Origin: Fusobacteriaceae bacterium
GTDB lineage: Bacteria; Fusobacteriota; Fusobacteriia; Fusobacteriales; Fusobacteriaceae
Assembly: GCA_031289425.1 (NCBI GenBank)
Contig: JAITPM010000040.1
Coordinates: forward strand, 55,423 to 119,422
DNA length: 64,000 bases
Direction of reading: 5' to 3'
Shown: piece after piece, positions 15,399 to 36,201 of the stretch
How positions within the stretch are numbered: position 1 is the stretch's first letter
Layout of the letters: each line of letters starts with the position of its first letter
The notes under the pieces: model-generated
Told to the model about the DNA's origin: nothing
Database searches by the model: none
The model's input: the letters and a program-made list of their open reading frames with translations, nothing else
Position numbers and translations under genes: made by a program

Positions 15399-15404
15399 TT
15401 TTTA

Positions 15405-16739: not shown

Positions 16740-16744
16740 TTATA

Positions 16745-17713
16745 TCACCTCTCAATTTCATCAAACAACGGAGTAGATAAATACCTTTCTCCGGTGTCAG
16801 GTAACAATACAACCACATTTTTACCAGAAAATTCTGTTTTCCTTGCAAAATGTGTTGCAGCAAATACAGCAGCGCCGCTAGATATACCGACAAGCAATCC
16901 TTGCTTTTGTGCAAGAAGTTGAGAAGTCAGAAATGCTTCTTCGTTGCGAACTTTGAATATTTCATCCACAACATCAAAGTCAAATACCTTTGGAATAAAA
17001 CCGGCACCTATTCCCTGTATCTTATGTGCACCTGGAGGATTCCCAGATAATACTGCCGAATCATAGGGTTCGACAGCCACTATTTTTATGTTGGGGTTAA
17101 GTTCCTTCAATCTACTCCCAATACCGGTAATAGTTCCGCCTGTACCTACACCACCCACGAATACATCAACCTTGCCGGACGTATCTCGCCAAATTTCTTC
17201 AGCAGTAGTTTCGCGGTGTATTTTTGGATTCACAGGATTATCAAACTGTTGAGGAATAAAAGCATTTGGGATAATTGTTGCTAGTTCTTCTGCCTTACGC
17301 ACAGCACCTTTCATTCCCGAAGCCCCTGGGGTAAGCACAATTTCTGCACCTAATGCAGCGAGTAATTTTCGACGTTCTATACTCATAGTATCCGGCATGG
17401 TAAGGATTATACGATAACCTTTTGCGGCTGCTACGAAAGCAAGTCCAATACCGGTATTACCACTTGTTGGTTCAATTAAAACTGTATCTTTTGCTATTTT
17501 GCCTGTTTTTTCAGCATCTTCAACCATGGCAAGAGCAATTCTGTCTTTTACACTACCAAGGGGGTTGAAATATTCAAGTTTTGCAATTAATCTTGCTCTC
17601 ACAGAAAATTCCCTACCGTAGTCTGTGAGTTCAAGTAAAGGTGTATTTCCGATTAAATCTGTAAGCTTCGCAGCTATTTTTTCATGATTATTTTTAATAT
17701 TATTTTCTTTCAT
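16745..17713 (-). CDS. Cysteine synthase-family PLP enzyme (second CysK/CysM-like copy)
   Basis: [50 protein letters not shown]. 322 aa. Start overlaps the upstream stop (ATGA). Confidence 0.85.
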
Positions 17714-18258
17714 ATTATCTCTCCTAAATATTCCGCTTCTGACAATGCATTGTTCCCAATAATATCATCTTTTTCAAGTAACCCGTCAACTGCAATTACG
17801 CCTCTGTCCTTCCAACCCATAAAATTACCACAATTTTTATAAATATCAACAAGTGGTTTTGCTTTTTTAATATCAGAGTGTGCGGTAATTAAAAGCACAC
17901 TCTCAGAAACTGTATGTCGTTCACGATTTTTGCCACGAGTATATGCGTGTATTCTGTCCCAGGCTATTTTAAGTTGCCCTGATACTCCACCCCAATATAG
18001 CGGAGAAGCAAAGACAATTACATCAGCGGATTCAAGAATAGATGCAATTTCATCAAAATCATCATGGATTACACATTTTGTACCCTCACGGATACATACA
18101 TTGCATCCGATGCAAGGGTGTATGTTTTTAAAAGCAGTTTCGATTTTATGTACAGAGTGACCAGCAGCAATTGCCCCCTTAATAAAGCTGTCGGCAAGTT
18201 TATCGCTGTTTCCGCCTTTTCGTGGACTGCCAGTTAATACAAGTATAGATTTCGACAT
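17710..18258 (-). CDS. Flavodoxin-fold FMN reductase / iron-sulfur flavoprotein-like protein
   Basis: [17 protein letters not shown]-binding N-terminus, compact Cys cluster [23 protein letters not shown] motif. 182 aa. Confidence 0.7.
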
Positions 18259-18325
18259 ATTTGAACCTCCTAAATCCTGATATTCGTCGATTAAATTTTG
18301 TATTCATGCAAACAATCATGTTATA

Positions 18326-18700
18326 TTAATAATTATTATGTTTAGTTTTATTATGATATTTAATCAATTTTTTTATTGCAATGGATAAATCTGATGGTGC
18401 TTCAATTGCAGTAACACCAAAACGCTGGAGATACATGTACGGATGTTTTCCAATCTTTTTCACGAGTAAATATTGTGCACTATCAATTAACTCTGCCAAT
18501 TTTTGATATTGTACAGAATCATTAAAATTTCCACACCCACCATTGCCGCAACTTCCCACATATTCTGATATACTTACCTTTTTTCTGAGTTCATATGTCT
18601 CATCATCATTTACAGTATATACAGATAATTCCTTCGCTTGCCCAAAGTGTGTATCAATATCTACTCCGTTTGATGTTGCAACTGCAACAATAAAGGCCAT
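18326..18700 (-). CDS. NifX/NifB-C-terminal family protein (dinitrogenase FeMo-cofactor-binding domain, PF02579-like)
   Basis: 124 aa. IVAVATSNGVDIDTHFGQAKELSVYTV opening and LLVKKIGKHPYMYLQRFGVTAIE fit the family pattern. RBS GGAGGA. Confidence 0.65.
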   Translation of the reverse strand: MAFIVAVATSNGVDIDTHFGQAKELSVYTVNDDETYELRKKVSISEYVGSCGNGGCGNFNDSVQYQKLAELIDSAQYLLVKKIGKHPYMYLQRFGVTAIEAPSDLSIAIKKLIKYHNKTKHNNY

Positions 18701-18723: not shown

Positions 18724-19881
18724 TTATACTTTATCTGGTATTTCTAAAGCTTGTTCCAAATCATTTATCAAATCGTCTACATGTTCTATCCCTGTAGACA
18801 ACCGCAATGTTGTTTCTAAAATTCCATTCTTTTCTCGTTCTTCTAAAGGTACATCTGAATGTGTCTGTGTGGTAGGGTAAGTTATCAATGTTTCTACTCC
18901 ACCCAAACTTTCTGCAAAACGAATAAGTTTTACGCTTTTTAATACATGCAGGGCAGTTTTTGCACAATCTACTTGAAAAGTAATCATGCTTCCAGACCCA
19001 CGAGATTGATTCTTATTTATTTCATAACCGGGATGATCTTTTAATCCTACATAATATACTTTTGTTACCTTAGGATGATTTATCAACCAGTTGGCAATGG
19101 TGATAGCATTCTTCTGACAAGCTTCCATACGTACAGCAAGAGTTTTTACTCCGCGTAGAACCAACCAACTATCAAAGGGAGCAAGTCCTGAGCCAATAGT
19201 TTTTATCAAAAAACGGAGTTCTTCTGAAAGATCTTTTCTTTTTACTATCAAAAATCCTGCTAGGGTATCATTATGTCCACCCAAAAATTTTGTACCACTA
19301 TGGAGTACGATATCTGCTCCTAAATCTAAAGGATTTTGGAAATATGGAGATAAAAATGTGTTGTCCACAATTAAAAGTAAATTGTGTTTTTTTGCGATTT
19401 CTGCTGTTTTCTGAATATCTGTTATATTCATCATAGGATTTGTAGGAGTTTCAATAAAAATAGCTACCGTTTCCTTTTTAATAAAATCCTCCAGATTGGG
19501 GGTAGATGTATCTAGATAGGTGATGGTCAAGCCATTTTTTATACTGATTTTATCAAAATACCGGATCATTCCGCCATACAAGTCTCTGCTGCTTATAATA
19601 TGCGCTCCAGGCTTAAATAATTCCAGCATAACTGCAATGGCTGCCATACCACTGGAAAAAGCCAGAGCGTCAATCCCATTTTCTAGGGAAGCCACAACTC
19701 TTTCTAATTGTTCTCTTGTAGGATTTTGCTGACGACTATAATCGTAACCGGTGCTTTCTCCAACACCGGGGTGTGCAAAGGTAGCTGTCTGATAAATCGG
19801 AAAGCTGATTGATCCAGTATTATCACACTGTGATGCCAATTGATTATTACTTACACAATTTGTCTCAACACGATATTTCAC
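18724..19881 (-). CDS. Cys/Met-metabolism PLP enzyme (cystathionine beta-lyase / gamma-synthase / gamma-lyase family)
   Basis: PIYQTATF, GYDYSRQQNPTRE, FSSGMAAI, VDNTFLSP, HSGTKFLGGH (PLP lysine). Start set at GTG 19881, preceded by GGGAGG. The ATG at 19917 has no RBS. Confidence 0.85.
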   Translation of the reverse strand: MKYRVETNCVSNNQLASQCDNTGSISFPIYQTATFAHPGVGESTGYDYSRQQNPTREQLERVVASLENGIDALAFSSGMAAIAVMLELFKPGAHIISSRDLYGGMIRYFDKISIKNGLTITYLDTSTPNLEDFIKKETVAIFIETPTNPMMNITDIQKTAEIAKKHNLLLIVDNTFLSPYFQNPLDLGADIVLHSGTKFLGGHNDTLAGFLIVKRKDLSEELRFLIKTIGSGLAPFDSWLVLRGVKTLAVRMEACQKNAITIANWLINHPKVTKVYYVGLKDHPGYEINKNQSRGSGSMITFQVDCAKTALHVLKSVKLIRFAESLGGVETLITYPTTQTHSDVPLEEREKNGILETTLRLSTGIEHVDDLINDLEQALEIPDKV

Positions 19882-19963
19882 AACAACACCTCCCGCAACA
19901 GGATCTCCACCATGCATTTATATTTTTTGTTGCATGTTTCATATCTGACATATTTTTCATCAT
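19865..19963 (-). CDS. Candidate 32-aa Met/Cys-rich leader peptide (MMKNMSDMKHATKNINAWWRSCCGRCCCEISC)
   Basis: RBS GAGGAG lies 8 nt upstream of the ATG at 19963. 4 Met in the first 8 codons and 6 Cys in the last 11. Its TGA (19865-19867) lies 14 nt inside the downstream lyase gene, and the lyase SD (GGGAGG) sits between its Cys codons. Confidence 0.4.
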   Translation of the reverse strand: MMKNMSDMKHATKNINAWWRSCCGRCCCEISC

Positions 19964-20003
19964 AATTTTTTCTCCTCTATCATATTTTAAATATTATAAT
20001 ATA

Positions 20004-21206
20004 TCAATTATTAAAAATTCCTAAAAAATCAAGAACAACTCCTGAAAATGTTAAAATTCCAGTTGTTAATGCCTTTTGGTCTACGACAAATTTACTATTA
20101 TGGCTTGGGGTGAATTCTTCTCCTTCACTTCTGCAACCGATTCTGACAAAAACTCCAGGGTATTTATCTTTGATGTAAGAAAAATCTTCGGAACCCATTG
20201 CTGGAACCGTTAAATCTTTTACATGTTCTTTTCCCAGTATCTGACTCATAACGTTTTTTGTCCGCTCTACCCATATTTTATCATTGTAAAGAGGTGGGGG
20301 TCCTTCTTTGAAAAGCACATTGCAGCTGGCTCCAAAAGCTTTAGTCACTCCATTACATAGTTCTGTAATTCGTTTTTGTAGTTTTATTCTAATTTCTTTT
20401 TCTAAAGTTCGTATGGTACCTTTCAAATAAATCCTTTCAGGAATAATATTATAAGCATCACCGGCACTATGAATACTGCACACAGAAACCACTGCCGAAT
20501 CAACAGCACGGACTTCCCTGCTTACTAGATATTGCAATTGAGTAATAATAGAAGCTCCGATTACTATTGGGTCGATTGCTGTATATGAATGTGCTCCATG
20601 GCCGCCTCTACCAATGATTTCGATATCAAAACTATCTGTGCTGGCCAAATTAACGCCTGATTTAATCCCAATATCACCACCATAAAGTTCATTTATGACG
20701 TGTAAAGCCAGAACCCCGTCAATATTATCCAAGGGTACTTCGTCGCTGCTAAAGAGTAATTTAGCTCCTTCCAGGGTTTCTTCTCCCGGCTGAAAAAAGA
20801 AATATATAGTACCTGAGAATAATTTTTTATAATTATTTAATACTGAGATTACTCCCAATAAAATAGCAGTGTGCGCATCATGCCCACAGGCGTGCATGAT
20901 GCCACTATTTTTGCTACATGGAAAATGTTTTGAATCCTCAGTAATGGGAAGGGCATCCATATCCGCACGTAATAAAATACAACTATTTTCTTGCGGTGCT
21001 TCTAATTTTTCTCCCTTCATAACAGCCAAAAGTCCTGTTTTACCTATTTTAATAATTTGGTCGCAAAAGGAATCTTTCAAGAGTATATTTTCTACAAATA
21101 AACTCGTATTAAATTCTTTCATACTCAATTCCGGATTTTCATGGAAATATTTATAATAAGAATATACTTCATTTTCTATATTTTTTACGATTAATTTTAA
21201 GTCCAT
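20004..21206 (-). CDS. M20D-family amidohydrolase (N-acyl-amino-acid deacylase / hippurate hydrolase-like)
   Basis: 400 aa. RADMDALP, HACGHDAHT, PGEE, GRGGHGA motifs. Confidence 0.85.
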   Translation of the reverse strand: MDLKLIVKNIENEVYSYYKYFHENPELSMKEFNTSLFVENILLKDSFCDQIIKIGKTGLLAVMKGEKLEAPQENSCILLRADMDALPITEDSKHFPCSKNSGIMHACGHDAHTAILLGVISVLNNYKKLFSGTIYFFFQPGEETLEGAKLLFSSDEVPLDNIDGVLALHVINELYGGDIGIKSGVNLASTDSFDIEIIGRGGHGAHSYTAIDPIVIGASIITQLQYLVSREVRAVDSAVVSVCSIHSAGDAYNIIPERIYLKGTIRTLEKEIRIKLQKRITELCNGVTKAFGASCNVLFKEGPPPLYNDKIWVERTKNVMSQILGKEHVKDLTVPAMGSEDFSYIKDKYPGVFVRIGCRSEGEEFTPSHNSKFVVDQKALTTGILTFSGVVLDFLGIFNN

Positions 21207-21249
21207 AGGCCACCTTTGTTTTTTAATTTTTATTCTTTTTTAATTTTTT

Positions 21250-22089
21250 CTATTTTAAATAATCAGGTAAAATCCAAATCTTACTTTGAGTTTTAATATA
21301 ATCTTTAAATTCTTGTGATTGGTAAGCTGCAACGATATCTTTTACCCATTGTTCATCTTTATGTTTTGCGTTTACAGTTAAATGTATATAGTTATCAGGC
21401 AAAATATTTGTAGGAGTCTCTCCGATAAGAGCTGTATTAAAATCAACTCTAGAATTATATGCATCAGAGGCTCTTAAAATGATAAAAGCAAAATCAGTTC
21501 TGGTAGGAACAATATTTGCCCCCTTCAATTCGATAATCTCAAGATTATAAGTATTTTCAACAATATCAGACAATTGATATTGAGTTGAATCTACTTCGGG
21601 TTTTAATTTTATCCAGCCAAGTTGGCTCAACAATAGTAAAGAACGAGCTGTGTTGGAAGGATCATTAGGTAGGGCTAATTTATCTCCTTTAGCGATCTTT
21701 GATAGATCTGATTTTGCACCTGGATATATACCTGCAGGAGCAGTAGGAAGTGGAATAATAACAGCCAAGTCTGTCTTTTGAGCTTTATTAATATTAGCAA
21801 TATAAGCTTTATGTGCATCCACATGAAAATCAATCTCGTCTTCACTCAATGCTATTTCTCTTTGAATAGAATCTGTTATTTCCACGGCCGTTAATTTGTA
21901 TCCTTGTTTTTGCAAAATAGGAACAACGCCACCTTCGAGTAAATCACTAGTTGCTGTAGGCAGTCTGCGATATTTGAGCTCAGGTTTGGCAGCAGCACCG
22001 GCACTTACATTGTTACCAAAAGCTGTAAAAGTTACAATAAATAATACTAATAATAATACTACAAAAATACTTTTTTTCCTTAAATTCAT
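21250..22089 (-). CDS. metQ: Methionine ABC transporter substrate-binding protein (NlpA/MetQ family)
   Basis: 279 aa with signal peptide, NlpA-like sequence. Located immediately downstream of metI/metN. Confidence 0.8.
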   Translation of the reverse strand: MNLRKKSIFVVLLLVLFIVTFTAFGNNVSAGAAAKPELKYRRLPTATSDLLEGGVVPILQKQGYKLTAVEITDSIQREIALSEDEIDFHVDAHKAYIANINKAQKTDLAVIIPLPTAPAGIYPGAKSDLSKIAKGDKLALPNDPSNTARSLLLLSQLGWIKLKPEVDSTQYQLSDIVENTYNLEIIELKGANIVPTRTDFAFIILRASDAYNSRVDFNTALIGETPTNILPDNYIHLTVNAKHKDEQWVKDIVAAYQSQEFKDYIKTQSKIWILPDYLK

Positions 22090-22150
22090 TTTGAATCATC
22101 TCCTGTATAATTTTATTATAATAATTTTATGTTGTATTAATATGAATTTA

Positions 22151-22813
22151 CTAGTGTCTGAAACGTCTTGCAAGGGCATTTCCAAAAGATTGAAATATAT
22201 GAACGATAATAATCAATATTAAAACTGTTATCACCATAAGAGGTGTATTTACTCGTTCATGTCCATAGATAATAGCCAAATTCCCTATACCTCCAGCGCC
22301 TATGGCACCTGCCATGGCAGTAGAGCCCAAAAGGCTGATAGTTCCTGTAGTAAGAGCCAATATTAGAGAAGATTTGGCTTCAGGTATTAGAAAATACCAA
22401 ATAATCTGTTTTTTGCTTGCTCCCATAGATTGAGCAGCTTCGATAATACCTTCATCTACTCCCAACATAGAGTTCTCGAATAATCGAGATAAATATGGAG
22501 CCACATTTACAATCAAAGGGATTAAAGCTGCGGTAGTGCCAATCCTTGTTCCTACTATGAATTTTGTAAAAGGCATAATAGCCACTAGCAGGATAATAAA
22601 AGGTGTGCTTCGTACCATATTAACAATTGTATTTAGGAACAAATACAGATATTTTTTTTCCATGAGACCTTTTGGTCTCGTCAAGATTAAGATTATGGAC
22701 AAGAGCATTCCCAGAAGAGCTCCGCCTATTAAAGAAAGAGCTACCATGTAAAGAGTTTGCCTCGCACAAAGAATAAGTGTCGCTCGTGTTACTTTCAGAT
22801 ATTGTTCAATCAT
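22151..22813 (-). CDS. metI: Methionine ABC transporter permease
   Basis: 220 aa, 5-TM permease with an EAA loop (IIEAAQSMGASKKQI). Overlaps the metN stop. Confidence 0.85.
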   Translation of the reverse strand: MIEQYLKVTRATLILCARQTLYMVALSLIGGALLGMLLSIILILTRPKGLMEKKYLYLFLNTIVNMVRSTPFIILLVAIMPFTKFIVGTRIGTTAALIPLIVNVAPYLSRLFENSMLGVDEGIIEAAQSMGASKKQIIWYFLIPEAKSSLILALTTGTISLLGSTAMAGAIGAGGIGNLAIIYGHERVNTPLMVITVLILIIIVHIFQSFGNALARRFRH

Positions 22814-23826
22814 AGAAGCACCTCTTCATATTCATATAGGTTACTTAAATAATCTGTAACCTCTTTTATTTTTCTATCGGAGCCTGTAATCTGTAGAGAA
22901 AAAACAGTCAAAATCGCATTTTGCACCTCATTCACAGAAACGGATAAGGTATTGATTTCTGTATCAAATTTATTTCTCAATTCCGGAACAAAGGTATCGC
23001 ATACATTTCCCCCCATACATCGTACTGTGAGTATTTTTCCGTTTTTTTTCTCACGCAGTCCTATCAAAACAGGGTCAGGAATCTTATTGTCTATAACACT
23101 GTTGACAAAGGTTTTAGTGATGGCTTCCCGGGGTTTGGCAAAAATTTTTTTAACATCACCTATTTCCACAATGCGTCCTTCTTCCATGACGGCCATTTTA
23201 TTACAAAGATTTTGTACAATATTCATTTGATGAGTAATGATTAAGATTGTTACATCTAATTCTTGGTTTATTTTTTTAAGTAATCCTAATATGGATTCTG
23301 TAGTCCTGGGATCCAAGGCACTTGTAGGTTCATCACACAAGAGAATTGTTGGATTGGTCGCTAATGCTCTGGCAATTCCTACCCGTTGTTTTTGTCCTCC
23401 TGATAAATTGGATGGATACACATTGACTTTCTCGGATAGTTCTACAAACTCCAAAATTTCATTTACTTTTTTTTTGATATCTTTCTTGGGTGTTTTATTC
23501 AGAATCAAAGGCATTGCAACATTTTCATAGACGGTTCGGCTGTTCAAAAGATTAAAATTTTGAAAAATCATTGAAATATTCTTTCGTGCCTTGATTAAAT
23601 CATCATTTTTAAGATTATTTATGATTTCATTATTGACAATGACATTGCCGCTGCTAGGTCGTTCCAATGCATTCACCATTCGGATCAAAGTAGATTTTCC
23701 AGCACCACTATAGCCTATTACTCCAAAGATATCTCCCTTTTCTATAGAAAAACTAATATTTGTACATGCATGGACTTTTAGATTATTCGCATCATAAATT
23801 TTCCCAACATTTTCGAAACGTATCAT
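22810..23826 (-). CDS. metN: Methionine ABC transporter ATP-binding protein with C-terminal NIL/ACT-like domain
   Basis: GYSGAGKSTL, LSGGQKQRVGIARAL, LLCDEPTSALD, plus a C-terminal regulatory domain. Start set at MIRFENV, with RBS AGGAG. Confidence 0.85.
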   Translation of the reverse strand: MIRFENVGKIYDANNLKVHACTNISFSIEKGDIFGVIGYSGAGKSTLIRMVNALERPSSGNVIVNNEIINNLKNDDLIKARKNISMIFQNFNLLNSRTVYENVAMPLILNKTPKKDIKKKVNEILEFVELSEKVNVYPSNLSGGQKQRVGIARALATNPTILLCDEPTSALDPRTTESILGLLKKINQELDVTILIITHQMNIVQNLCNKMAVMEEGRIVEIGDVKKIFAKPREAITKTFVNSVIDNKIPDPVLIGLREKKNGKILTVRCMGGNVCDTFVPELRNKFDTEINTLSVSVNEVQNAILTVFSLQITGSDRKIKEVTDYLSNLYEYEEVLL

Positions 23827-23924
23827 TATTTGGCACACTCCTGTTAGAGATAAATAGAGACTTATTTCATTCTGCATTTATCAATAACCTGGGTATTGTT
23901 TTCCCTCCAGGTTAGGGATTCTAG

Positions 23925-24839
23925 TTATTTCACGCTGTATTTATCAATAACTCCCAATTCTCCCAGCAATTTTTCCAGTTTTTTCAAGTATTTACCACGG
24001 TAATCCTCATAAGGGCGGCGCAAATGTCCACCCGGTAAACCAAGTATATTCAGAGCGGCCTTGATAACAATGGGATTAGAAAATGTATATAATTCTTCCA
24101 ACAATGGGAACCATTTGAAATATTCTTTTCGTGATTCTTCCACTATCTCTATACTTGTCCAAGGTCGAGAGTAGAATGCTGATTCTTCCGGAATAATATT
24201 TCCACCGATATTAGCGGTACCTGTACCACCAACAGCCAACGTAGGCAATACGATAGCATAACCAGGGGCATCACAACACATGATTTTTATTTTTCCTTCA
24301 GTCAAACGTTGCACTTGTACCAGTTGTTCTACACTACCTACAGCTTCTTTGTCTACAACAAAATTTTCATGACGGTCAGATAGGAGCTTGATTGTTTGGG
24401 GTGTTACATGAACACCCAATCGTGAAGGGTTATTATAAATCCCACATGGAATGCTAATAGAATTCATACAGGCATCAAAATGCGCAAAAGCTGCAGATTG
24501 TGGTACCAATACATATGGGGGAACAGTGAATATAACACCGTCTGCACCTTGGTATTCATGATATTGTGCTAGGTCAATACTGGCTTCTGTTGTTAGTGCT
24601 GCCGCTGAAAAGAAAACCGGTATTCGCTTGTTAACAATTTTAAGAACTTGGCGTACAATTTCTTTTTTTTCTTCCACCGAAAGTAGCGTGGTTTCTCCGG
24701 CCGAGCCGAGAATAAATAATTGCGAAGTACCGTATTTAATTTGCCTCTCAATCAAAACAGCAAAAGCATCGAAATCAATTTTGTCCTCCTTTGTAAATGG
24801 TGTTGGCATGGCGACCCATGAGCCGGTTAAATTTGTCAT
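23925..24839 (-). CDS. DapA/NanA-family class I (Schiff-base) aldolase
   Basis: 304 aa. MPTPF, GSAGETTLLSVEEKKE, YNNP, VVDKEA (catalytic Lys context). RBS AAGGAGG. Confidence 0.8.
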   Translation of the reverse strand: MTNLTGSWVAMPTPFTKEDKIDFDAFAVLIERQIKYGTSQLFILGSAGETTLLSVEEKKEIVRQVLKIVNKRIPVFFSAAALTTEASIDLAQYHEYQGADGVIFTVPPYVLVPQSAAFAHFDACMNSISIPCGIYNNPSRLGVHVTPQTIKLLSDRHENFVVDKEAVGSVEQLVQVQRLTEGKIKIMCCDAPGYAIVLPTLAVGGTGTANIGGNIIPEESAFYSRPWTSIEIVEESRKEYFKWFPLLEELYTFSNPIVIKAALNILGLPGGHLRRPYEDYRGKYLKKLEKLLGELGVIDKYSVK

Positions 24840-24890
24840 CGTTGTCCTCCTTAGAATTGCAAATATTTTATGTATTTATTTTCATTTATA

Positions 24891-24926
24891 AAAAAAAATA
24901 CTTCAGAAATTTTTGAAGTATTTTTT
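24891..24926 (-). terminator. Strong stem-loop terminator/attenuator in the leader of the sulfur operon
   Basis: An 11-bp perfect stem, AAAATACTTCA (24895-24905) with TGAAGTATTTT (24914-24924), has an 8-nt loop and is flanked by A and T runs. It lies between the 50-aa sORF stop (24990) and the DapA-like start (24839). Confidence 0.6.
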
Positions 24927-24989
24927 GACCGTTATAATTTATTTGCTAATCTGTACTCAATCATTGTTTGCTAGGCGGCAAAACAAATT

Positions 24990-25142
24990 TTACATTGGTG
25001 CAGTCCGGTAAAAACCTTTTTCTAATTTCTTTTTTGGGTTCTGTCTATACAAAAAAATGTGAAACATGTTCATACATGTACACATCATACAGCTATGCAT
25101 CATACAGCAACAGATACCAATCCCCAAAAATAATAGAATCAT
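24990..25142 (-). CDS. Candidate 50-aa Cys/Met-rich small protein or leader peptide (MILLFLGIGICCCMMHSCMMCTCMNMFHIFLYRQNPKKKLEKGFYRTAPM)
   Basis: RBS AAAGGAAG lies 8 nt upstream of the ATG at 25142. 6 Cys and 8 Met in 50 residues. The longer track ORF begins at a TTG that coincides with the predicted -35 box. Confidence 0.4.
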   Translation of the reverse strand: MILLFLGIGICCCMMHSCMMCTCMNMFHIFLYRQNPKKKLEKGFYRTAPM

Positions 25143-25176
25143 TTTCTTACTTCCTTTGTCAGAAATTATTGTATCA

Positions 25177-25205
25177 ATCTTATCGTAAATTTTGTTTTTA
25201 GTCAA
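25177..25205 (-). promoter_or_regulatory. Sigma-70-type promoter candidate for the sulfur operon leader
   Basis: On the minus strand: TTGACT (25205-25200), 17 nt, TAAGAT (25182-25177). About 35 nt upstream of the sORF ATG. Confidence 0.4.
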
Positions 25206-25281
25206 ATATAAAAAATATATGATAAATATATAAAAAATATATAAAAAATATATTTTTAAAAACTTTGTTATAAATATAAAA

Positions 25282-25313
25282 GGCTCTTATAGACGTATCC
25301 GACAAAAAGAGCC
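25282..25313 (-). terminator. Terminator candidate ending the upstream sigma-54 operon
   Basis: GGCTCTT (25282-25288) pairs with AAGAGCC (25307-25313) across an 18-nt loop. On the minus strand it is followed by TTTTAT. Confidence 0.4.
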
Positions 25314-25376
25314 ATTTTATTACTCTATAATATTATAATAAACTTATCTAAAAAATATCTAAAATTTCTATGCATG

Positions 25377-25979
25377 TTATATATGATTGTACTCATCCTT
25401 ACCCAACAATCTGATAAACCATGATATTTTTGCACTTTCTTCCAATTCTTCTAGTCCAAAAAATGCTTCCATTATTGATTCTCCGCCTACTATTGATCCA
25501 TGATTTTGAAGAAGGAATCCATCTCCGGAATTTATTCTTTTTTTCATTTCTGCAAATAATTCTTTACTTCCTGGTGGGAAATATTTTATCAAAGAAATTT
25601 TTCCAACTTTCATTTGTAAATATGGGGTAATATTTGCAATTATATCATCTTCATTTTTATGCTTTAAAATTGACCAAAGTGTTGAATAAAGGCTGTGAGT
25701 ATGTATGACTGCTTGGATTTTATCTGATTTATTATATAGAGCCAAATGAAGAGAAAGTTCTTTGCTTGGTTTTATATCAGAAATAGTTGTCCCATCAAGA
25801 GTTGTTATCGCAAAATCTTTTTTCTCTAAAATACCAAAACATGTTCCACTTCCGGATATATATATTTTATCATTATCTCTGAAACTGATATTTGCTGATG
25901 AACCTGATGTTTTATTTCTCTCAAATAAGCTTTTTGATACCCATATTGTTTCTTGAAATTTTTTTCCCAAATCTTTCAT
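25377..25979 (-). CDS. Class II aldolase/adducin-family protein (OtnC-like decarboxylase/aldolase)
   Basis: 200 aa. SSANISFR, SGSG and VIHTHS metal-ligand contexts. Immediately downstream of the DUF1537 kinase. Confidence 0.75.
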   Translation of the reverse strand: MKDLGKKFQETIWVSKSLFERNKTSGSSANISFRDNDKIYISGSGTCFGILEKKDFAITTLDGTTISDIKPSKELSLHLALYNKSDKIQAVIHTHSLYSTLWSILKHKNEDDIIANITPYLQMKVGKISLIKYFPPGSKELFAEMKKRINSGDGFLLQNHGSIVGGESIMEAFFGLEELEESAKISWFIRLLGKDEYNHI

Positions 25980-25980
25980 T

Positions 25981-27255
25981 TTAGTTTTGCCCTCCAGTCA
26001 TTTCAAGTGCTCTGGTGAAGAAATCCTCTTGTCCAAAATTACCGGATTTCAAAACAAGACGAATCTTATTGTTTTTTAATGGTGTCATTATAGGAACTCC
26101 CGGTGCGATACTTTTACCTATTAGATAAGATTTAAATCCTAATTTTTGTGTTATTGTACCTGATGTTTCTCCACCGGCTACGATAATTCTATATTTCCCA
26201 CATTCGATGGCTGCGGCTGCAATTGTTGCCATAGCTTGTTCCAGCATTTGTGCAATTTTTTCTTTTCCATTAGCTTGTACCTTTTTTACTTCATCTGAAG
26301 GAGCAGAACTATATATTAATAAATTATCCGAAGATTGCATCAAACTAATTATATCTTCAAGTTTTTGTTCTCCATACATTAGTTTTAAAGGATATATTTG
26401 ATAAGATTTCCCACCTTTTTTTTGATAATCTGCTATTTGAGAAAGAGTAGCAACTGAGCAGCTACCGGCGAGAATTACTGCACCACTTTGTATTTTATCT
26501 TCAACTGGATTATTTTGAGTTTTTTCACAAATATTAAAAAATTTCTTAGCTATGTGAGACATCAATCCGGATCCGCCTGTTAATAATGGAAGATCACCGA
26601 ATAAATCAATTATTTTTTCTCCGTGTTCTGTCTCATGGTAATCAGGGATGAGATAAAAATGTTTGTTTTCTCTGGAAAGATCCTTTAGTTTTGAAAATAA
26701 TTTTTCTTTTTCTCCAAAAAGTTCATCCATCTCAAGATTAAATGCCCTATATTTACTCTGTGCTTCTATTAATATTTTTATTTCAGAGGCCCACATAGGC
26801 GTCAAAGGGTGATTGCTCATAGGACTTTCATGAAGCAGTACTCCATCAACGTATAATTTTCCATCTTTTACTATTCTCTTATTTACAGGAAGAGCTGGGC
26901 AAAGAATAGTATAAGGTACATTATATTCTTCTAGAATAGCATCAACAATTGGTCCAATATTTCCGTCTTTTGTAGAATCAAAAGTAGAACAATATTTCAC
27001 ATATAATTTTTTTGCACCATGATTTTTAAGCCATTTTGCAGCTTTTAATGATTGGGATACGGCCATATTTTTCTCTTCTGTTCTTGTCTTCAGCGCAATG
27101 ACGACAGACTGACAATTGGGTTCTATAATACCATTTTTATCCGGTATCCCATTATAAAGTATAACCCTTGTTCCATTTTCTGTCAAAAATGATGCAGCAT
27201 CACTGGCACCGGTAAAATCATCTGCTAAACATCCAAATAATATTTTATTTTCCAT
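25981..27255 (-). CDS. Four-carbon acid-sugar kinase family protein (DUF1537, OtnK-like)
   Basis: 424 aa. GCLADDFTGASDAASF N-terminal signature and a C-terminal nucleotide-binding domain (AGGETSG, LKSGNFG). Confidence 0.8.
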   Translation of the reverse strand: MENKILFGCLADDFTGASDAASFLTENGTRVILYNGIPDKNGIIEPNCQSVVIALKTRTEEKNMAVSQSLKAAKWLKNHGAKKLYVKYCSTFDSTKDGNIGPIVDAILEEYNVPYTILCPALPVNKRIVKDGKLYVDGVLLHESPMSNHPLTPMWASEIKILIEAQSKYRAFNLEMDELFGEKEKLFSKLKDLSRENKHFYLIPDYHETEHGEKIIDLFGDLPLLTGGSGLMSHIAKKFFNICEKTQNNPVEDKIQSGAVILAGSCSVATLSQIADYQKKGGKSYQIYPLKLMYGEQKLEDIISLMQSSDNLLIYSSAPSDEVKKVQANGKEKIAQMLEQAMATIAAAAIECGKYRIIVAGGETSGTITQKLGFKSYLIGKSIAPGVPIMTPLKNNKIRLVLKSGNFGQEDFFTRALEMTGGQN

Positions 27256-27313
27256 ACACCAGTCTCCTGATTAATAAGATTAACTTATATCAATTATTAG
27301 TTTATATAGTAAT

Positions 27314-28471
27314 TTATAATATTTTTTTGCCACCTTGAATAACGGTCTTCACTCTTTTCAATGCTTTTATATCTTCCAGTGGGTTCCCATCTAGAATTAC
27401 TAAATCAGCTTCTAAACCTTCTGTTATTGATCCGGTAATATTTTGAATACCGCAAAGTTTAGCAGCATTGGTTGTTATACCGGCTAATACATCTTTATTT
27501 TTAGCACCCAGAGATGAAATGTATATTGCTTCTTGAGCAAGACCTGTATGCAATCCATCTGTTCCGATACCAAATTTTAGTTCATTTTTTATCGCATCTG
27601 ATAAACAATCGCATATTATTTCTTTCTCCCTTAAGCTACCATCTTTATCATGGGGAGAAAATTTAAATAAAAGCTCATCATTTAGTGCATAACTTGGAGT
27701 ATAGACTACCCATCTATCTTTTTCCTTTACTTGTTCTATTTGCTTTTTAGTTATATAATACACATGTTCTAAGCAGTCAATACCGGCTGTCAAACAGGCA
27801 TCCAGGCCTTGACCACCAGAGCAATGACATGATGTACTAATACCTACACTTTTTGCTTCTGTTACAACTACATTCAACTCTTCCATTGTAAGAAAGTGAT
27901 AAATAAATGGAGTCGCGTTAATTACTTTAGTCATAAAAACTTTTAAAAAATTAACCCCTTTTTCGATATTTTCTCTGGAGGTTTTTCTGAATTCTTCCGG
28001 GCCACAATGAGGCATTCCAACATACCCATGTCCGTGGAGGCTTCTCATTCCTATACCACTCACAATCAATCTTGGACCGATGATTCTGCCTTCTTTCTGG
28101 GCTTGCCTACATGCCACATCTATATAAAATCGATCTCCGCAGCATCTTGCAGTTGTTACACCTGAGTATAAATCATCTTTCATTGTTTTTAGTGCCCTTA
28201 TAGTTTGTTCGGCCTCGCAATCATTCATTTTTACTAGATGGTTTTGAAGTCTTGCATCTAATGCTAAATGATTATGGCAATCTATCATGCCGGGAATAAT
28301 TGTATCACCTTCTGCATCTATAATTTTAAAATTATCTGAAATTTTTATTTTAGATATATCTTCATATATTTTGGATATTTTACCATTTTCTATAAGAATA
28401 CCTGCATTCTTAATTACTTTTAATTCTTTTCCTGCGATTATATTTTTTGCTTTTATTAAAAGATTATCCAT
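27314..28471 (-). CDS. Metal-dependent amidohydrolase-superfamily protein
   Basis: 385 aa. PGMIDCHNHL (HxH), HCSG, EHV and GTDG metal-ligand contexts. Confidence 0.75.
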   Translation of the reverse strand: MDNLLIKAKNIIAGKELKVIKNAGILIENGKISKIYEDISKIKISDNFKIIDAEGDTIIPGMIDCHNHLALDARLQNHLVKMNDCEAEQTIRALKTMKDDLYSGVTTARCCGDRFYIDVACRQAQKEGRIIGPRLIVSGIGMRSLHGHGYVGMPHCGPEEFRKTSRENIEKGVNFLKVFMTKVINATPFIYHFLTMEELNVVVTEAKSVGISTSCHCSGGQGLDACLTAGIDCLEHVYYITKKQIEQVKEKDRWVVYTPSYALNDELLFKFSPHDKDGSLREKEIICDCLSDAIKNELKFGIGTDGLHTGLAQEAIYISSLGAKNKDVLAGITTNAAKLCGIQNITGSITEGLEADLVILDGNPLEDIKALKRVKTVIQGGKKIL

Positions 28472-28490
28472 AAGCAGACCTCCTAATTTT

Positions 28491-29465
28491 TTAAGATTTA
28501 TTATTCTCTTTAGATTCGCTATTTTGTTCCAATTTTTTTTGAGCTTTCTTATAGAAATATCCAGTCAAAATCGGAGCTAAGATAGCTGACACAACAACAG
28601 ATGCCGCCACTTGGGCTGTTGCTACTTCTACTATAGGATTTAGTGTAGGGTCAGCCATAGCAACGGATGCCGGTACTGCAACGGCGTTACCTCCGGTAGT
28701 TCCAATAGCCATCCCCATAGGATCTGGTTTTTTTCTGATAAAACTATACAAGAAATAAGTAAAAACTCCTGTAAAAACTACTGTTAACATACCTAATACA
28801 AGTCCACCTACACCTGCTTTAAAAATAGTAAATAAACTCATGTTGGCACCGAGTACAAAACCATTAAATGGGAGGAGCATAGATAATCCGTCTGTGAGTA
28901 ATTTTTTAAAATCTTCATCCAAATTACCTAAAAGCATACCTATGATTAAAGGAACAATAGCAGCAATTAATGCGATTAATGGGATATCTGCCAATCCTGT
29001 GGTTCCTAATGCGATCATTGTTAAAAAAGGACCATCATTTAGCGAAAGAATTGCAATTGCGCCTACGTCAGTAGAATCACCGAATTCTTTTGCAAGGGCT
29101 GTATAAATGGCACCATTTGAATTTGTAACAGCAGTAATAACTGCTAAAGGAGTCAATCCTAAAATTGCGTAAGAACCGAATATTTTATTTAATCCCCAGC
29201 CGAGAGCAACGCCTATTACGTATTTTAATACTGTCAATACTGTTCCTTTGTAAATCGGGAGGCCTGCCTGTTTAAAATTTATAGATGCTCCACTGCATAA
29301 AATAAATAATCCTACCAATGTTGCTGTTCCGCTTTTAAATAATCCTGTAGTGAAACCACCAATTCCTAATATACTTGGTATAAAAGTATTTACAAGACAT
29401 CCCAATAATAAAGGAATAACCATCATTCCACCTGGAAATTTTTTCATAGTAGCACAAATTTTCAT
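28491..29465 (-). CDS. kdgT: 2-keto-3-deoxygluconate permease-family transporter
   Basis: The MKICATMKKFPGGMMVIPLLLG opening matches the KdgT family. 324 aa polytopic protein. Confidence 0.75.
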   Translation of the reverse strand: MKICATMKKFPGGMMVIPLLLGCLVNTFIPSILGIGGFTTGLFKSGTATLVGLFILCSGASINFKQAGLPIYKGTVLTVLKYVIGVALGWGLNKIFGSYAILGLTPLAVITAVTNSNGAIYTALAKEFGDSTDVGAIAILSLNDGPFLTMIALGTTGLADIPLIALIAAIVPLIIGMLLGNLDEDFKKLLTDGLSMLLPFNGFVLGANMSLFTIFKAGVGGLVLGMLTVVFTGVFTYFLYSFIRKKPDPMGMAIGTTGGNAVAVPASVAMADPTLNPIVEVATAQVAASVVVSAILAPILTGYFYKKAQKKLEQNSESKENNKS

Positions 29466-29492
29466 AAATAAATACCTCCTTTGTAGTTAATA

Positions 29493-30908
29493 TTATTTTT
29501 TAAATGTTTTTTCTTGTTCCAATCTTAATTCCCATAACATTGAGTTTTTTGGTTCTTCCACCATAGAATAAGTGATTATTTCTCCGGCCTTTATTTCTTT
29601 TTTTACTGTATTCCCATCCAACATATGAGCTGGTACAGCGGAATCTGCCCCACGTGATGTAGCCGGGTATATTAATGATGTCATCCTAGAATCATGATCA
29701 TTTCCAAAAATTTCTCCGATTTTGATATCGCAAAGAGCTTTTCTTACGAGATCAAATCTAGGTTTGTAATTAGCGGATCCTGTATCAAGTCCTAACATTA
29801 CTGCTGCCTTTAATGTAGTGGAAACTTCGACCCCGCAAAGGTGATAGGGGCGATAAATGACAGCTGTAGAACAATCATAATTCGGTATTTGCCCTTTTGT
29901 TGTTAGAATATAATTTGAGTATGCATTATCACACCTAACCACTAAGAATACTCCCCCGCCCATTCCTGATTCATCTTTTCTTCTAAAACATGTTTGAATG
30001 TCAATTATTCCTTCTTCATCTTTGTAGATTCCACCATTGTTAGTAGAACAGTATGCTATTGGTAGTTCAGTAATTCTTAAAATTCCTTGAGTTAATTCCG
30101 GTCTGTAAGGTTTTAGTCCAGTTGCATTGGCCATGATAGTTAGTTCACACAGATCAAATCCTCCGGCTCCTGGTAAATTTTTCAATATTTCAGCTCTTTT
30201 TTCAATATAATCTTGGGCTTTTCCTTCTGGTATCATCTCAAAATATTTTATATAATCATCTGGAATATGTGCAGTCACAGTTTTATGAACCGTAATACCA
30301 TCAGCGGCTATTGTAACAGTTTTATTTTTTTCATCATATACAAATTCACCATCTCTAGATTTTCCAGCGGATATAACTGTAAGACCTATTTCTTTTGCCC
30401 ATTCAAAAAGTTGTATAAGTAATCCATGCTGATCTCCGTCTACTGGTGTATATATAAGATTTTTTTCATCAGCTTTCTTTTTTAATATTGTACCAATTAC
30501 AGAGTCCAATTCTTTGGAAACTATAGCAACATTTTTTCCATTTTCCAACGCTGTCATACAATATCTTGCTCCGGCTTCTGGAATCCCTGTTCCTTCGCAG
30601 ATTATATCTATTTCCGGTATTTCCATTAATATGGAAACTTTATCCGTATAGATAAATTCTCCTCGCAAGAGTGCTGCACTAGCAGTTTTGGCGGTATTAC
30701 AGTATACTATTTTATTTTCGGGTATACCTGCTTTTAAAAATGAAATTTTTGCATTTTCCAAATTAGTGTCTGCAACAATAGGAATCGATAGATCTTTTAC
30801 ATATTTTTGTTGCGTGACTACTGCTGTTCCGAAATGTCCTGCCCCTATATACGCAGCTATTACTGAGTCTTTTTTCTTAAATTTTTCAAATAATTGAGTA
30901 TAAATCAC
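29493..30908 (-). CDS. NAD(P)-binding oxidoreductase with C-terminal SAF domain (COG4091-type, homoserine dehydrogenase-like)
   Basis: AAYIGAGHFG Rossmann motif and a C-terminal SAF-like segment. Start preferred at GTG 30908 (RBS GGAGGGAGG upstream). ATG 30926 is the alternative. Confidence 0.6.
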   Translation of the reverse strand: MIYTQLFEKFKKKDSVIAAYIGAGHFGTAVVTQQKYVKDLSIPIVADTNLENAKISFLKAGIPENKIVYCNTAKTASAALLRGEFIYTDKVSILMEIPEIDIICEGTGIPEAGARYCMTALENGKNVAIVSKELDSVIGTILKKKADEKNLIYTPVDGDQHGLLIQLFEWAKEIGLTVISAGKSRDGEFVYDEKNKTVTIAADGITVHKTVTAHIPDDYIKYFEMIPEGKAQDYIEKRAEILKNLPGAGGFDLCELTIMANATGLKPYRPELTQGILRITELPIAYCSTNNGGIYKDEEGIIDIQTCFRRKDESGMGGGVFLVVRCDNAYSNYILTTKGQIPNYDCSTAVIYRPYHLCGVEVSTTLKAAVMLGLDTGSANYKPRFDLVRKALCDIKIGEIFGNDHDSRMTSLIYPATSRGADSAVPAHMLDGNTVKKEIKAGEIITYSMVEEPKNSMLWELRLEQEKTFKK

Positions 30909-30986
30909 TCTAATACCTCCCTCCATGATGCTATTTTTTTATAATAATAAATAATTAATAATTTTATTATGTCGAATATTTATGAA

Positions 30987-31001
30987 GCAAAATTTATGCC
31001 A
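30987..31001 (-). promoter_or_regulatory. Sigma-54 (-24/-12) promoter
   Basis: The minus strand reads TGGCATAAATTTTGC, i.e. TGGCAT-N5-TTGC with exact consensus spacing. It lies ~60-80 nt upstream of the first operon gene and opposite a sigma-54 activator gene. Confidence 0.65.
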
Positions 31002-31133
31002 ATTTATTTTGAATTATTTAAATACGTAAAATATTGTTTTTGAACAGAATAGATTGATTTTATATTATAAATGTTGTAAAATATGTTGTAATATACGTTG
31101 CAGCATATGCAACATGTTTCAGGAGGATGCAAC

Positions 31134-33065
31134 ATGATAAATATATTTTTTATTGTTCCTTATCCGGAATTGAAACCTATAATAAACGAAATTTATAACA
31201 ATCATCCATTTAAAAAATCTCTAAATGTAAATTTTCTTGTAATGACAGTAGATATGGTTAGAAAATATAAGATGGAAAAAGTATATGATGTTTATGTAGG
31301 TCGTAATTTTACATTTAAAGAATTGAAAAAAATGTACCCCAATAAAGCAATTTTGGAAATTCCGATTACAGGATATGATATCGTACAGGCAATTTGTGAA
31401 GCACATGAAAAATATCATCCTAAAAAAATAGGTATAATTGGAAGATTTTTAAAATTTTTTAATGTACTTGATTTTAATAACTTGGAAGAAATAGGGAATT
31501 GTCAATTGATAAGTTATCCGATTGATGAAGTACATGATATGGAAACGAGCATAAGAAAGGCAAAAAAAGACAAATGCGATTGTATCGTAGGGGGATATTC
31601 CACTACATTATATGTTAAAGACAAGGGAATAGATGCAGTCACTATAAAGGTAAGCAAAGAGACCATATATAAAGTATTCGAAGAGGCCATACATATAGCA
31701 CAGGCAATACATGAAGAACGTGAAAAATCCGAAATATTACGGATTATAACAAAGACTTCAAATACAGGGATTTTTTATATAAATTCAGAAAAAAATATAG
31801 AAGAAATAAATGATGAAGCTAAAAAATACTTTTTAAATACAGATATAGATACATATAATCGGTCTATCTTCCAAATAGCACCATTTATGAAGGATGCTAT
31901 AAATACATGCTTTGAAACAGGAAACATTGTTTCAAATAAATTATACACTTTTAAAAATATAACAATATCCGTTGATTATACTCCTGTAAAAGTCGATAAT
32001 ATTATTTCAGGAATCATTATATGTTTCTTTACAGTTACTAAAGTACAACAATTAGAATCACAAATAAGGAAAAAAATGAGTGAAAAAGGATTGGTTGCCA
32101 AATACAAATTTAGTGATATTATCTATAAAAGCAGTGTTTTTAAAAATTTAATTCAAAATGCTAAAAAATACGCTGCTGTTTCTTCCAATATTTTGATAGT
32201 AGGTGAGACAGGAACAGGAAAGGAACTATTTGTACAAAGTATACATAATGAAAGTAGCAGGAAGGATGAAAGCTTTGTTGGGGTGAATTGTGCAGCTCTT
32301 TCTACAAACTTACTGGAAAGTGAACTATTCGGGTATGAAGAAGGAGCGTTTACAGGTTCAAAAAAAGGCGGACAAATAGGTTTGTTTGAATTGGCACATA
32401 AAGGAACTTTATTTCTTGATGAGATTTCTGAAATCCCTATTTCGTTTCAAAGTAAGTTATTACGTGTATTACAAGAACATGAAGTAAGGAGGGTGGGAGG
32501 AACTACGTTTATTCCAATTGATGTACGTATTATCACAGCCACAAACAAAAATATGAAAAAATTACTTGCAGAAGGAAAATTCAGAGAAGATCTCTTGTAT
32601 AGGTTGGATGTTTTAAAATTACTTATTCCACCATTAAGAGAAAGAAAAGAAGATATAATAGAATTATTTAAGTATTATTTGAATTATCATTGCCAAAAGC
32701 TGGGATTTATTATGCCTTCATTTTCAAAAGAAGCGGAATTTATAATTTCTAATTATAAATTCCCAGGAAATATAAGAGAACTTATCAACATTACAGAACG
32801 CTTAAGCGTTCTGAAAAATAATGATGTCGTATCTAAAGAAGATATGCTCACTATGTTATATCAAGATGATATTGATGACAATAAAGCCTATGATTTAACA
32901 TTGCCAAATGATTTATTTATAAATTGTGAAAAAGAAGATGAAAAAGAAAAAGCTAACATAAAAAATATTTTAATGAGTGTGAATCATAATAAAATTAAAG
33001 CAGCCGAGAAACTCGGCATAGATAGAACTACATTGTGGAGAAAAATGAAGAAATACGGGATATAG
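31134..33065 (+). CDS. Sigma-54-dependent transcriptional activator, PrpR-type N-terminal sensor plus PAS, AAA+ and Fis-HTH domains
   Basis: GETGTGKE Walker A, GAFTGS (GAFTGA loop variant), ELFGYEEG, RVIATN-like ITATN, C-terminal KAAEKLGIDRTTLWRKMKKYGI. RBS AGGAGG before the ATG at 31134. Confidence 0.85.
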   Translation: MINIFFIVPYPELKPIINEIYNNHPFKKSLNVNFLVMTVDMVRKYKMEKVYDVYVGRNFTFKELKKMYPNKAILEIPITGYDIVQAICEAHEKYHPKKIGIIGRFLKFFNVLDFNNLEEIGNCQLISYPIDEVHDMETSIRKAKKDKCDCIVGGYSTTLYVKDKGIDAVTIKVSKETIYKVFEEAIHIAQAIHEEREKSEILRIITKTSNTGIFYINSEKNIEEINDEAKKYFLNTDIDTYNRSIFQIAPFMKDAINTCFETGNIVSNKLYTFKNITISVDYTPVKVDNIISGIIICFFTVTKVQQLESQIRKKMSEKGLVAKYKFSDIIYKSSVFKNLIQNAKKYAAVSSNILIVGETGTGKELFVQSIHNESSRKDESFVGVNCAALSTNLLESELFGYEEGAFTGSKKGGQIGLFELAHKGTLFLDEISEIPISFQSKLLRVLQEHEVRRVGGTTFIPIDVRIITATNKNMKKLLAEGKFREDLLYRLDVLKLLIPPLRERKEDIIELFKYYLNYHCQKLGFIMPSFSKEAEFIISNYKFPGNIRELINITERLSVLKNNDVVSKEDMLTMLYQDDIDDNKAYDLTLPNDLFINCEKEDEKEKANIKNILMSVNHNKIKAAEKLGIDRTTLWRKMKKYGI

Positions 33066-33088
33066 ATAGTTTTGTATAGTCTCTCAAA

Positions 33089-36138: not shown

Positions 36139-36201
36139 CTTATAATATAATTTTTTTAATGTTATTCTATCACAAAATTTCAGATTATTTTAAAAAATAA
36201 A

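Follow-up and report, generated by a model that had tools for sequence, protein, structure and literature searches.

The stretch analysed here (below, the window) is 64,000 nucleotides of DNA from a Fusobacteriaceae bacterium, positions 55,423 to 119,422 of contig JAITPM010000040.1, and our subject is a leader of ~280 nt that precedes a 16-gene Cys/Met gene cluster on its minus strand. The leader carries a small open reading frame (sORF1) rich in Cys and Met codons and ends in an intrinsic terminator; it is under strong selection, and no conserved promoter of the operon's own follows it. We conclude that, whatever its sensor, it is a conditional terminator and so, broadly speaking, an attenuator. 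The likeliest of the sensors considered is the translation of sORF1, working like leader-peptide attenuation though not as a classical member of that class, a reading to which we give a probability of roughly 0.45; our search for an RNA rearrangement by which ribosome stalling could bring about read-through had no success.

Layout and conservation of the leader

The leader lies in a minus-strand gap of 537 nt between the stop codon of a class II aldolase gene (25377) and the ATG of a DapA-family gene (24839). Read along that strand, the gap contains a terminator-like hairpin belonging to the aldolase gene, an AT-rich repeat, a promoter-like site, a Shine-Dalgarno (SD) sequence and a 50-codon frame, and then two hairpins (HP1 and HP2), a 13-bp hairpin with nine Ts, a 37-nt spacer, a ribosome-binding site (RBS) and the DapA-like start. 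The promoter-like site is of the sigma-70 type (25177..25205, minus strand; TTGACT at 25205-25200, 17 nt, TAAGAT at 25182-25177) with 9 of 12 consensus matches, and would place the transcription start near 25170. The SD sequence AAGGAAG (25150..25156) stands 7 nt 5' of the ATG at 25142, giving sORF1 a 5' untranslated region (UTR) of ~28 nt, and the frame itself (24990..25142) runs for 50 codons to a TAA at 24992-24990 and encodes the peptide MILLFLGIGICCCMMHSCMMCTCMNMFHIFLYRQNPKKKLEKGFYRTAPM, with 6 Cys and 8 Met. HP1 (24964..24986) is a bulged hairpin, TTGTTTTGC / GCAAACAA with a bulged T, that begins 5 nt past the sORF1 stop; HP2 (24935..24963) pairs TGATT with AATTA around a 19-nt loop containing TTGAGTA (24960-24954) and TAGCAAATAA. 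The latter (24948-24939) is a near-repeat of TAGCAAACAA (24973-24964). An earlier sequence-only reading had pointed out the promoter-like site, the SD-led frame of 50 amino acids with its 6 Cys and 8 Met, the bulged hairpin (24986-24964), the near-repeat of its 3' arm (24973-24964/24948-24939) and the TTGAGTA segment, and all of these were confirmed, the peptide being identical.

How strongly is this leader conserved? All comparative inference here is drawn from two sequences, the window and the contig (L024/L028) that encodes P0002, which is the single close relative (96% identical) among all homologues of the DapA-like protein in the protein collection and which shares the leader. The two can be aligned from 25242, just upstream of the -35 hexamer, across the leader and the first five genes, with 86.9% nucleotide identity. 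The 4-fold degenerate sites of the five shared genes, which differ at 0.374, served as the neutral yardstick. Against this, divergence from promoter to terminator is 0.113; by segment it is 0/37 in the terminator, 2/28 in the 5' UTR, 16/153 in sORF1 (0.105; P about 5e-14 versus neutral) and 13/64 in the segment that follows the frame. Judged by these rates, the leader has a function over its full length, promoter to terminator, and is under strong purifying selection. The promoter match is by itself not significant (44 matches in the window versus 41 in shuffles); in the relative its -35 hexamer is invariant and its -10 hexamer keeps T1, A2 and T6. The SD sequence and the ATG are likewise invariant there, at a spacing 1 nt greater.

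The terminator (24890..24926, minus strand) has a perfect 13-bp stem, AAAAAATACTTCA / TGAAGTATTTTTT, with an 8-nt loop (24926-24893); nine Ts follow one another at 24898-24890, six of them inside the 3' arm of the stem. Its folding energy is -11.2 kcal/mol, and in a dedicated scan no other perfect stem with a T run in the 64-kb window was as long; our general terminator scan, which required at least three G-C pairs, missed it because the stem has just two. The sequence-only reading had been right about the T run and about the distance of 50 nt from it to the DapA-like ATG (24839), and had made the stem too short, at 11 bp. Since the hairpin (24893-24926) is bordered by an A run as well as a T run, the plus strand too reads as a hairpin followed by T6, which could halt antisense transcription arriving from the operon side.

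The 37-nt spacer between terminator and RBS (24853..24889) differs at 14 of 38 aligned columns (0.368), a divergence equal to neutral, and by this comparison there is therefore no conserved promoter or structure in it; the promoter-like match that it does contain, TTTATA-16-TAAAAT, has lost its -10 hexamer in the relative. With no conserved promoter after a strong terminator, expression of the operon depends on read-through, and this read-through must be conditional.

The Cys/Met-rich frames sORF1 and sORF2

The Cys and Met codons of sORF1 are concentrated in codons 11-26 (25065..25112, minus strand; CCCMMHSCMMCTCMNM), a block of three 5-codon units, CMMHS/CMMCT/CMNMF, which at the DNA level is an approximately three-copy tandem repeat of 15 nt (Tandem Repeats Finder, period 15) and whose second half folds as a 6+6-bp hairpin. 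In a six-frame scan of the 64 kb the best 17-residue stretch of sORF1 was the extreme of the window, with 12 of 17 residues Cys or Met, the runner-up having seven and the background being 4.8%. Three consecutive Cys codons stand in the middle of the frame. Cys content alone (6/17) is unexceptional, as five other segments, mostly out of frame, score 6-7. One of the five, a TG-rich, operator-like element at 31060-31135 on the plus strand that is not an open reading frame (ORF), scores 6/17 in one frame, so TG-rich DNA elements can mimic Cys-rich frames. It is made of direct and inverted repeats (ATGTTGTAA twice, GTTGCA-N5-TGCAAC, and TGCAACATG twice) immediately 5' of the gene for a sigma-54 activator that has a PrpR_N domain (31098-33065), and it looks like an operator or an upstream activating sequence.

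Is sORF1 translated, and if so does it matter as a protein? The relative keeps its sense frame open, and the window's antisense frame of 77 codons is interrupted there; no insertion or deletion falls within sORF1, versus four in the ~270 aligned columns outside. Of its 14 Cys/Met codons 12 are kept, the changes in the block being C11S and M19L. Simulation with the two sequences puts the chance that the frame would survive 16 random changes at 0.23, and the chance that at least 12 Cys/Met codons would be kept at 0.18, and this evidence for translation is modest. The 16 changes are distributed 5:6:5 over the three codon positions, the neighbouring genes diverging at 0.077/0.032/0.282. Third positions are thus more conserved than in the flanking genes (3x slower; P = 0.0014, or P = 0.005 outside the Cys/Met block) and second positions less so (3.7x faster; P = 0.006). 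Ten codon changes are non-synonymous versus one synonymous, the radical ones including I2N, Y32D and G43F, and the stop TAA has become CAA in the relative, where the frame runs on for nine more codons through HP1 to a length of 59. Constraint of this kind is not protein-like, and fits a leader in which the RNA sequence and a few codons matter.

The codon-position pattern, the radical replacements and the lost stop together disfavour the second of two readings offered from the sequence, namely a small membrane or metal-binding protein. The peptides of both genomes do have a hydrophobic, transmembrane-like N-terminal stretch of ~31 residues followed by a Lys-rich basic tail. The gene caller did not predict sORF1, and none of the called genes on record has exactly this peptide. 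Homologous small proteins at unrelated loci had been named as a sign against attenuation; a phmmer search of 1.84 billion representative proteins found no homologue at all (one low-complexity match, E = 6e-4), and there was no Pfam or NCBIfam family for the peptide. It was also considered as a SCIFF-like precursor of a ribosomally synthesized and post-translationally modified peptide (RiPP), and this was rejected for lack of a family match and of a maturase nearby.

A second frame of the same kind, sORF2 (19865..19963, minus strand), has 32 codons, encodes MMKNMSDMKHATKNINAWWRSCCGRCCCEISC and has its own SD sequence, GAGGAG. It is placed at the next probable transcription-unit start within the same cluster, and its Cys run overlaps the GGGAGG RBS and the probable GTG start (19881) of a cystathionine gamma-lyase/synthase-family gene, for which the start in the ORF listing (19917) is probably too far upstream. 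In the relative sORF2 (L028 6879-6977; MMKKVLETKFATKNMNMWWTSCRGGCCCEISC) again has 32 codons, and there it heads a separate intergenic region of 290 nt. Five of the six Cys are kept. Both genomes have four Met codons, two of them at different positions and one arising by a triple change, GCA to ATG; this loss and regain suggests that the Met content itself is maintained. No Cys-run upstream frame resembling sORF2 was present ahead of 74 more distant cystathionine-lyase homologues, and Pfam and NCBIfam returned nothing for it except a sub-threshold CXXX-repeat match (E = 0.0076). A ribosome stalled on sORF2 would cover the downstream start, and may in this way couple translation of the cystathionine-lyase gene positively to the Cys supply. 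The earlier argument from two independent Cys/Met-rich frames holds, since the length and Cys run of sORF2 are conserved. The residues enriched in sORF1 are exactly those that the operon handles, and this is true a second time in sORF2; we consider it a stronger argument for translation than the survival of the frame.

RNA structure and the competing explanations

RNAalifold, run on the two leaders, recovers HP1 and HP2 independently, and each carries a compensatory double change in the relative, G:C to A:U in HP1 and G.U to C:G in HP2. With two sequences the shuffle control (136/500) carries no information, but slid registers gave none. On these comparative grounds we take HP1 and HP2 to be real RNA structures. 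Other elements of the predicted fold are a hairpin in the Cys/Met block (GAUGUG-U-ACAUGU-AUGA-ACAUGU-UU-CACAUU), a long-range helix, UUUUUGGG/CCCAAAAA, that encloses the block, a conserved GC-rich segment, UACCGGACUGCACCAAUG, that closes a multi-branch domain, a small hairpin, UGCA-CCAA-UGYA, in which the T-to-C change that destroys the sORF1 stop turns a G.U pair into G:C, and a hairpin that can sequester the SD sequence of sORF1. Two-hairpin antitermination of the ANTAR type was considered by eye and rejected, because the HP1 loops (CGCCUA in the window, UCAAC in the relative) and the 19-nt loop of HP2 do not have the hexaloop pattern.

If translation of sORF1 is the sensor, the leader might work as follows. 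Transcription would begin at the promoter (25205-25177) and yield a leader RNA of ~280 nt, translated from the SD-led sORF1, in which codons 11-26 are almost all Cys or Met. As long as both Cys-tRNA and Met-tRNA are charged, ribosomes would reach the stop codon and RNA polymerase would be released at the 13-bp/U9 terminator. Scarcity of either tRNA would make ribosomes stall in the Cys/Met block and alter the fate of the leader RNA downstream of them, and more polymerases would then read through into the genes for the DapA-like protein, MetNIQ and onward to CysK. Translation of sORF1, stalling as the signal and the direction of the response are all inferred. The sequence-only reading had offered a leader-peptide attenuator as its first proposal, and our results support the outline (selection on the leader, no promoter after the terminator, an open frame, and a match between its Cys/Met codons and the operon) and do not support the mechanistic core.

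Several observations weigh against a sensor of this kind. The position of the sORF1 stop is not conserved, and the codon evidence is weak, since retention of 12 of 14 Cys/Met codons in a comparison of two sequences is not significant. Counted from the Cys/Met block, the stop is 24 codons away and the terminator ~140 nt, a geometry unlike that of classical leaders, and orthologous operons with 79-83% DapA identity have no such leader altogether. Half of the block is self-complementary (ACAUGU...ACAUGU, GUG...CAC), and selection on the RNA could yield its composition: ACA and UGU, like AUG and CAU, are reverse complements, so self-complementary RNA made of them would be read as codons for C, T, M and H. 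Part of the composition could genuinely have come about in this other way. The ribosome was then modelled by masking 30 nt at codons 11, 13, 15, 18, 20, 23 and 26 and at the stop, in both sequences. The terminator was present in the minimum free energy structure at every position and was not displaced in any masked state; forbidding it cost 9.7-11.2 kcal/mol in both sequences. The TTGAGTA segment, which had been proposed to pair with its 5' arm, does so at -3.6 kcal/mol here and at -2.8 in the relative, which is negligible beside the -11.2 of the terminator. Upstream partners of the 5' arm were no better than those in dinucleotide shuffles (0.18-0.21 of which were at least as good). The best partners are codons 4-13 and codons 37-47, at about -10 to -11 kcal/mol as duplexes, and only codons 37-47 have the right logic, being free on stalling and covered when the ribosome reaches the stop; both were rejected as antiterminators because their energies are indistinguishable from those of shuffles. 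In transcripts truncated before the 3' arm, the core of the 5' arm was paired for a fraction of 0.32-0.61 of the time, independently of ribosome position. The antiterminator that defines a classical attenuator is thus absent from these models, with which a kinetic or factor-assisted switch would be compatible.

The main and serious rival to translation of sORF1 as sensor is an untranslated structured leader in which the RNA itself does the sensing and controls the terminator, whether it is a new riboswitch or is bound by an RNA-binding antiterminator protein or a tRNA, and in which the Cys/Met frame is a by-product of the UGUAUGAUG repeats and the self-complementary block. We think this unlikely, though it accounts for a good deal: constraint is at the nucleotide level and even over codon positions (5:6:5), two hairpins have compensatory changes, UACCGGACUGCACCAAUG closes its multi-branch domain, the Cys/Met block folds as a hairpin, the change that abolishes the stop improves a pair in the small hairpin, the stop is not kept in place, and no ribosome-dependent antiterminator was found. 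It leaves as coincidence that an SD-led frame of 50-59 codons in DNA of ~30% GC encodes the operon's two amino acids, requires the same coincidence again at sORF2, and does not call for the conserved SD sequence and ATG. Nor did the leader match any of the 4227 Rfam families to E 10, and the leaders of relatives gave no match either.

Distinctly less probable is a stand-alone small gene for a single-pass, thiol-rich membrane peptide with its own promoter and terminator, the operon being expressed by constitutive leakage. The transmembrane-like segment and basic tail in both genomes, the frame's own SD sequence, the terminator after it and a length of 50-59 codons, long for a leader peptide, would all suit such a gene. 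Its codons, however, have changed in the wrong way (10 non-synonymous versus 1 synonymous, including the non-conservative I2N, Y32D and G43F, with second positions 3.7x faster and third positions 3x slower than in neighbouring genes), its stop is not conserved, neither the protein and family collections nor the gene caller recognise it, and no antisense promoter or RNA is evident. Least probable of all, and in our view very improbable, is a DNA-level element, in which the TGTATGATG repeats and the palindromes TGTACA, ACATGT and ATGCAT form a roadblock operator and the ORF is a chance reading of low-complexity DNA. The repeat at 31060-31135 shows that such DNA can read as 'Cys-rich' (6/17) without being an ORF, and orthologous operons carry a palindrome, CATAK-N7-MTATG, in a short 5' UTR. 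That palindrome is absent from this leader, however, and was rejected as its control; a 15-bp period makes 1.5 helical turns, a poor fit to binding on one face; the middle TGTATGATG repeat has become TGCTTAATG in the relative, a synonymous change that keeps the Cys; and the conserved SD sequence and ATG, the compensatory hairpins and the terminator are left unexplained.

Relatives, known systems and the surrounding genes

Comparison of the leader in related genomes, which had been suggested from the sequence, gave two outcomes: one relative shares it under strong purifying selection, and DapA homologues at 79-83% identity (L025/26, L027, L109, L110) keep the DapA-MetNIQ-M20 gene order and lack it. 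They have instead a consensus promoter and a ~60-nt 5' UTR with the palindrome CATAK-N7-MTATG between the -10 hexamer and the RBS (L109 1560-1580, L110 115-135, L027 3955-3975, L025 3610-3630). This palindrome is probably the operator of a repressor, and the same operon would then be under different control devices in sister lineages. No recurrent Cys/Met-rich frame was seen upstream of DapA-like homologues in 22 GTDB loci; the DNA pattern of the codon block had no matches in metagenome and viral collections (the metagenome set lacking even the known contigs), and nhmmer with a two-sequence profile of the leader found only the known copies in 110 loci and the window. Rfam gave no match in the window at gathering score and nothing relevant to E 10 in 19000-26000. 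In the relative a glyoxalase gene (33089-33517 in the window) directly adjoins the leader, so ~7.8 kb (25243-33089) has been inserted in the window, or deleted from the relative. This piece is a sugar-acid catabolic cassette consisting of the sigma-54 activator gene and a divergent operon (DRL-type oxidoreductase, KdgT permease, amidohydrolase, four-carbon acid-sugar kinase-like protein and the class II aldolase).

Most Gram-positive-type genomes regulate their Met and Cys genes through S-boxes, T-boxes or proteins. The leader resembles the S-box (S-adenosylmethionine (SAM)-I) and Met/Cys T-box leaders of Firmicutes in position and logic, being ~200-300 nt long with an intrinsic terminator before metNIQ, cysK and C-S lyase genes, and differs from them in having no T-box sequence, no SAM-binding core and no Rfam match to E 10. 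Amino-acid-sensing leader peptides come, to our knowledge, mainly from Proteobacteria and Actinobacteria, and we know of none that reads Met codons; in the literature we found neither a Met-codon leader peptide nor a leader-peptide attenuator of Fusobacteriota described. The classical attenuators of Proteobacteria (trpL, hisL, leuL, thrL, ilvL, pheL) have ORFs of 14-33 codons. Like them, the present leader has a short SD-led ORF enriched in operon-cognate codons, an intrinsic terminator before the first gene with no later promoter, and conservation at the nucleotide rather than the protein level. Unlike them, it yielded in silico no antiterminator that depends on ribosome position, its regulatory codons are in mid-ORF, the frame is 50-59 codons long, and two amino acids are enriched together.

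Leader peptides of this general kind include a His leader upstream of hisS/hisZ in bacilli (PMC2965389), and Cys leader peptides have been predicted in Actinobacteria (PMC1262725). In mycobacteria, Cys-run sORFs are Cys-responsive attenuators (Canestrari et al., bioRxiv 10.1101/834739); stalling of a ribosome on the polycysteine tract changes how accessible the SD sequence of the next gene is (bioRxiv 10.1101/834739; PMC1262725). The present frames are like these in their runs of Cys codons and in being unannotated, at the head of Cys-metabolism operons, several to a sulfur regulon (a 'ribulon'), lineage-specific and fast-evolving outside the Cys codons. The mycobacterial sORFs are leaderless, have their Cys runs near the stop and no terminator hairpin, and act on translation by unmasking the SD sequence, whereas sORF1 is SD-led behind a ~28-nt 5' UTR, has a mid-ORF Cys run mixed with Met, and is followed by a strong terminator and a neutral spacer, with the next SD sequence ~140 nt off behind that terminator. 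Because its Cys run overlaps the RBS of the next gene, sORF2 is nearer to the mycobacterial type than sORF1. Small single-pass membrane proteins and type I toxins also resemble sORF1 in length (50-59 residues), hydrophobic N-terminus, Lys-rich tail and predicted SD sequestration, and differ in that sORF1 has no protein-like selection, homologues or antisense RNA signal and stands in the leader of a metabolic operon.

The first gene of the 16-gene cluster, with its RBS AAGGAGG (24852-24846), occupies 23925..24852 on the minus strand, and the cluster runs to 8579. By Pfam and NCBIfam its products are, in order, a DapA-family lyase, MetN, MetI, MetQ, an M20 amidohydrolase, a cystathionine gamma-lyase/synthase-family enzyme, a NifX/NifB-C-like protein, a flavin mononucleotide (FMN) reductase-like protein, CysK (above the curated cut-off), two nitrogenase NifD/K/E-like proteins, a PatB-family C-S lyase (above the curated cut-off), a D-cysteine desulfhydrase-family enzyme, an NMT1-type binding protein, an enolase-superfamily enzyme and a PNPOx-like protein. 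The label 'sulfur operon' that it had been given from the sequence is sound in view of MetNIQ, CysK, the PatB-family C-S lyase and the cystathionine and D-cysteine desulfhydrase family enzymes. The two NifD/K/E-like, the NifX/NifB-C-like and the FMN-reductase-like genes (13869-18700, minus strand), set between the CysK and C-S lyase genes, look by family assignment like a nitrogenase-like system in a sulfur amino-acid setting; no NifH-like gene was seen among the window ORFs scanned. A second sulfur-type cluster (183-3908, plus strand), whose leader falls outside the window, encodes an ABC ATPase, an NMT1-type binding protein, a permease and another PALP (CysK-like) enzyme. Beside the metabolic region of 33-39% GC lies a block of 22-30% GC (34669-45700, minus strand) with genes for a helix-turn-helix regulator, a tyrosine integrase, MipA and VirB4/TraG-like and VirB11-like ATPases, which is probably an integrated conjugative element.

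The whole cluster might be governed by two sensors read by ribosomes, with the Cys- and Met-reading sORF1 gating the terminator in a non-classical way and the Cys run of sORF2 acting over an internal RBS, and we put this forward as a tentative and somewhat doubtful extension. If true, a leader peptide read through its Met codons would be known for the first time, Fusobacteriota would have their first case of leader-peptide attenuation, and a 'ribulon'-like arrangement would exist beyond Actinobacteria. If translation of sORF1 is indeed the sensor, a translated Cys/Met sensor in Fusobacteriota would widen the phylogenetic and amino-acid range of ribosome-mediated attenuation. It would also mean that such sensors arise de novo, as near relatives use a different, operator-like control for the orthologous operons, and that stalling can be linked to termination by something other than the textbook alternative hairpin. 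The analysis also draws attention to a regulatory element, so far unannotated, at the head of an unusual cluster in which MetNIQ, CysK and C-S lyase genes stand with nitrogenase-like NifD/K paralogues.

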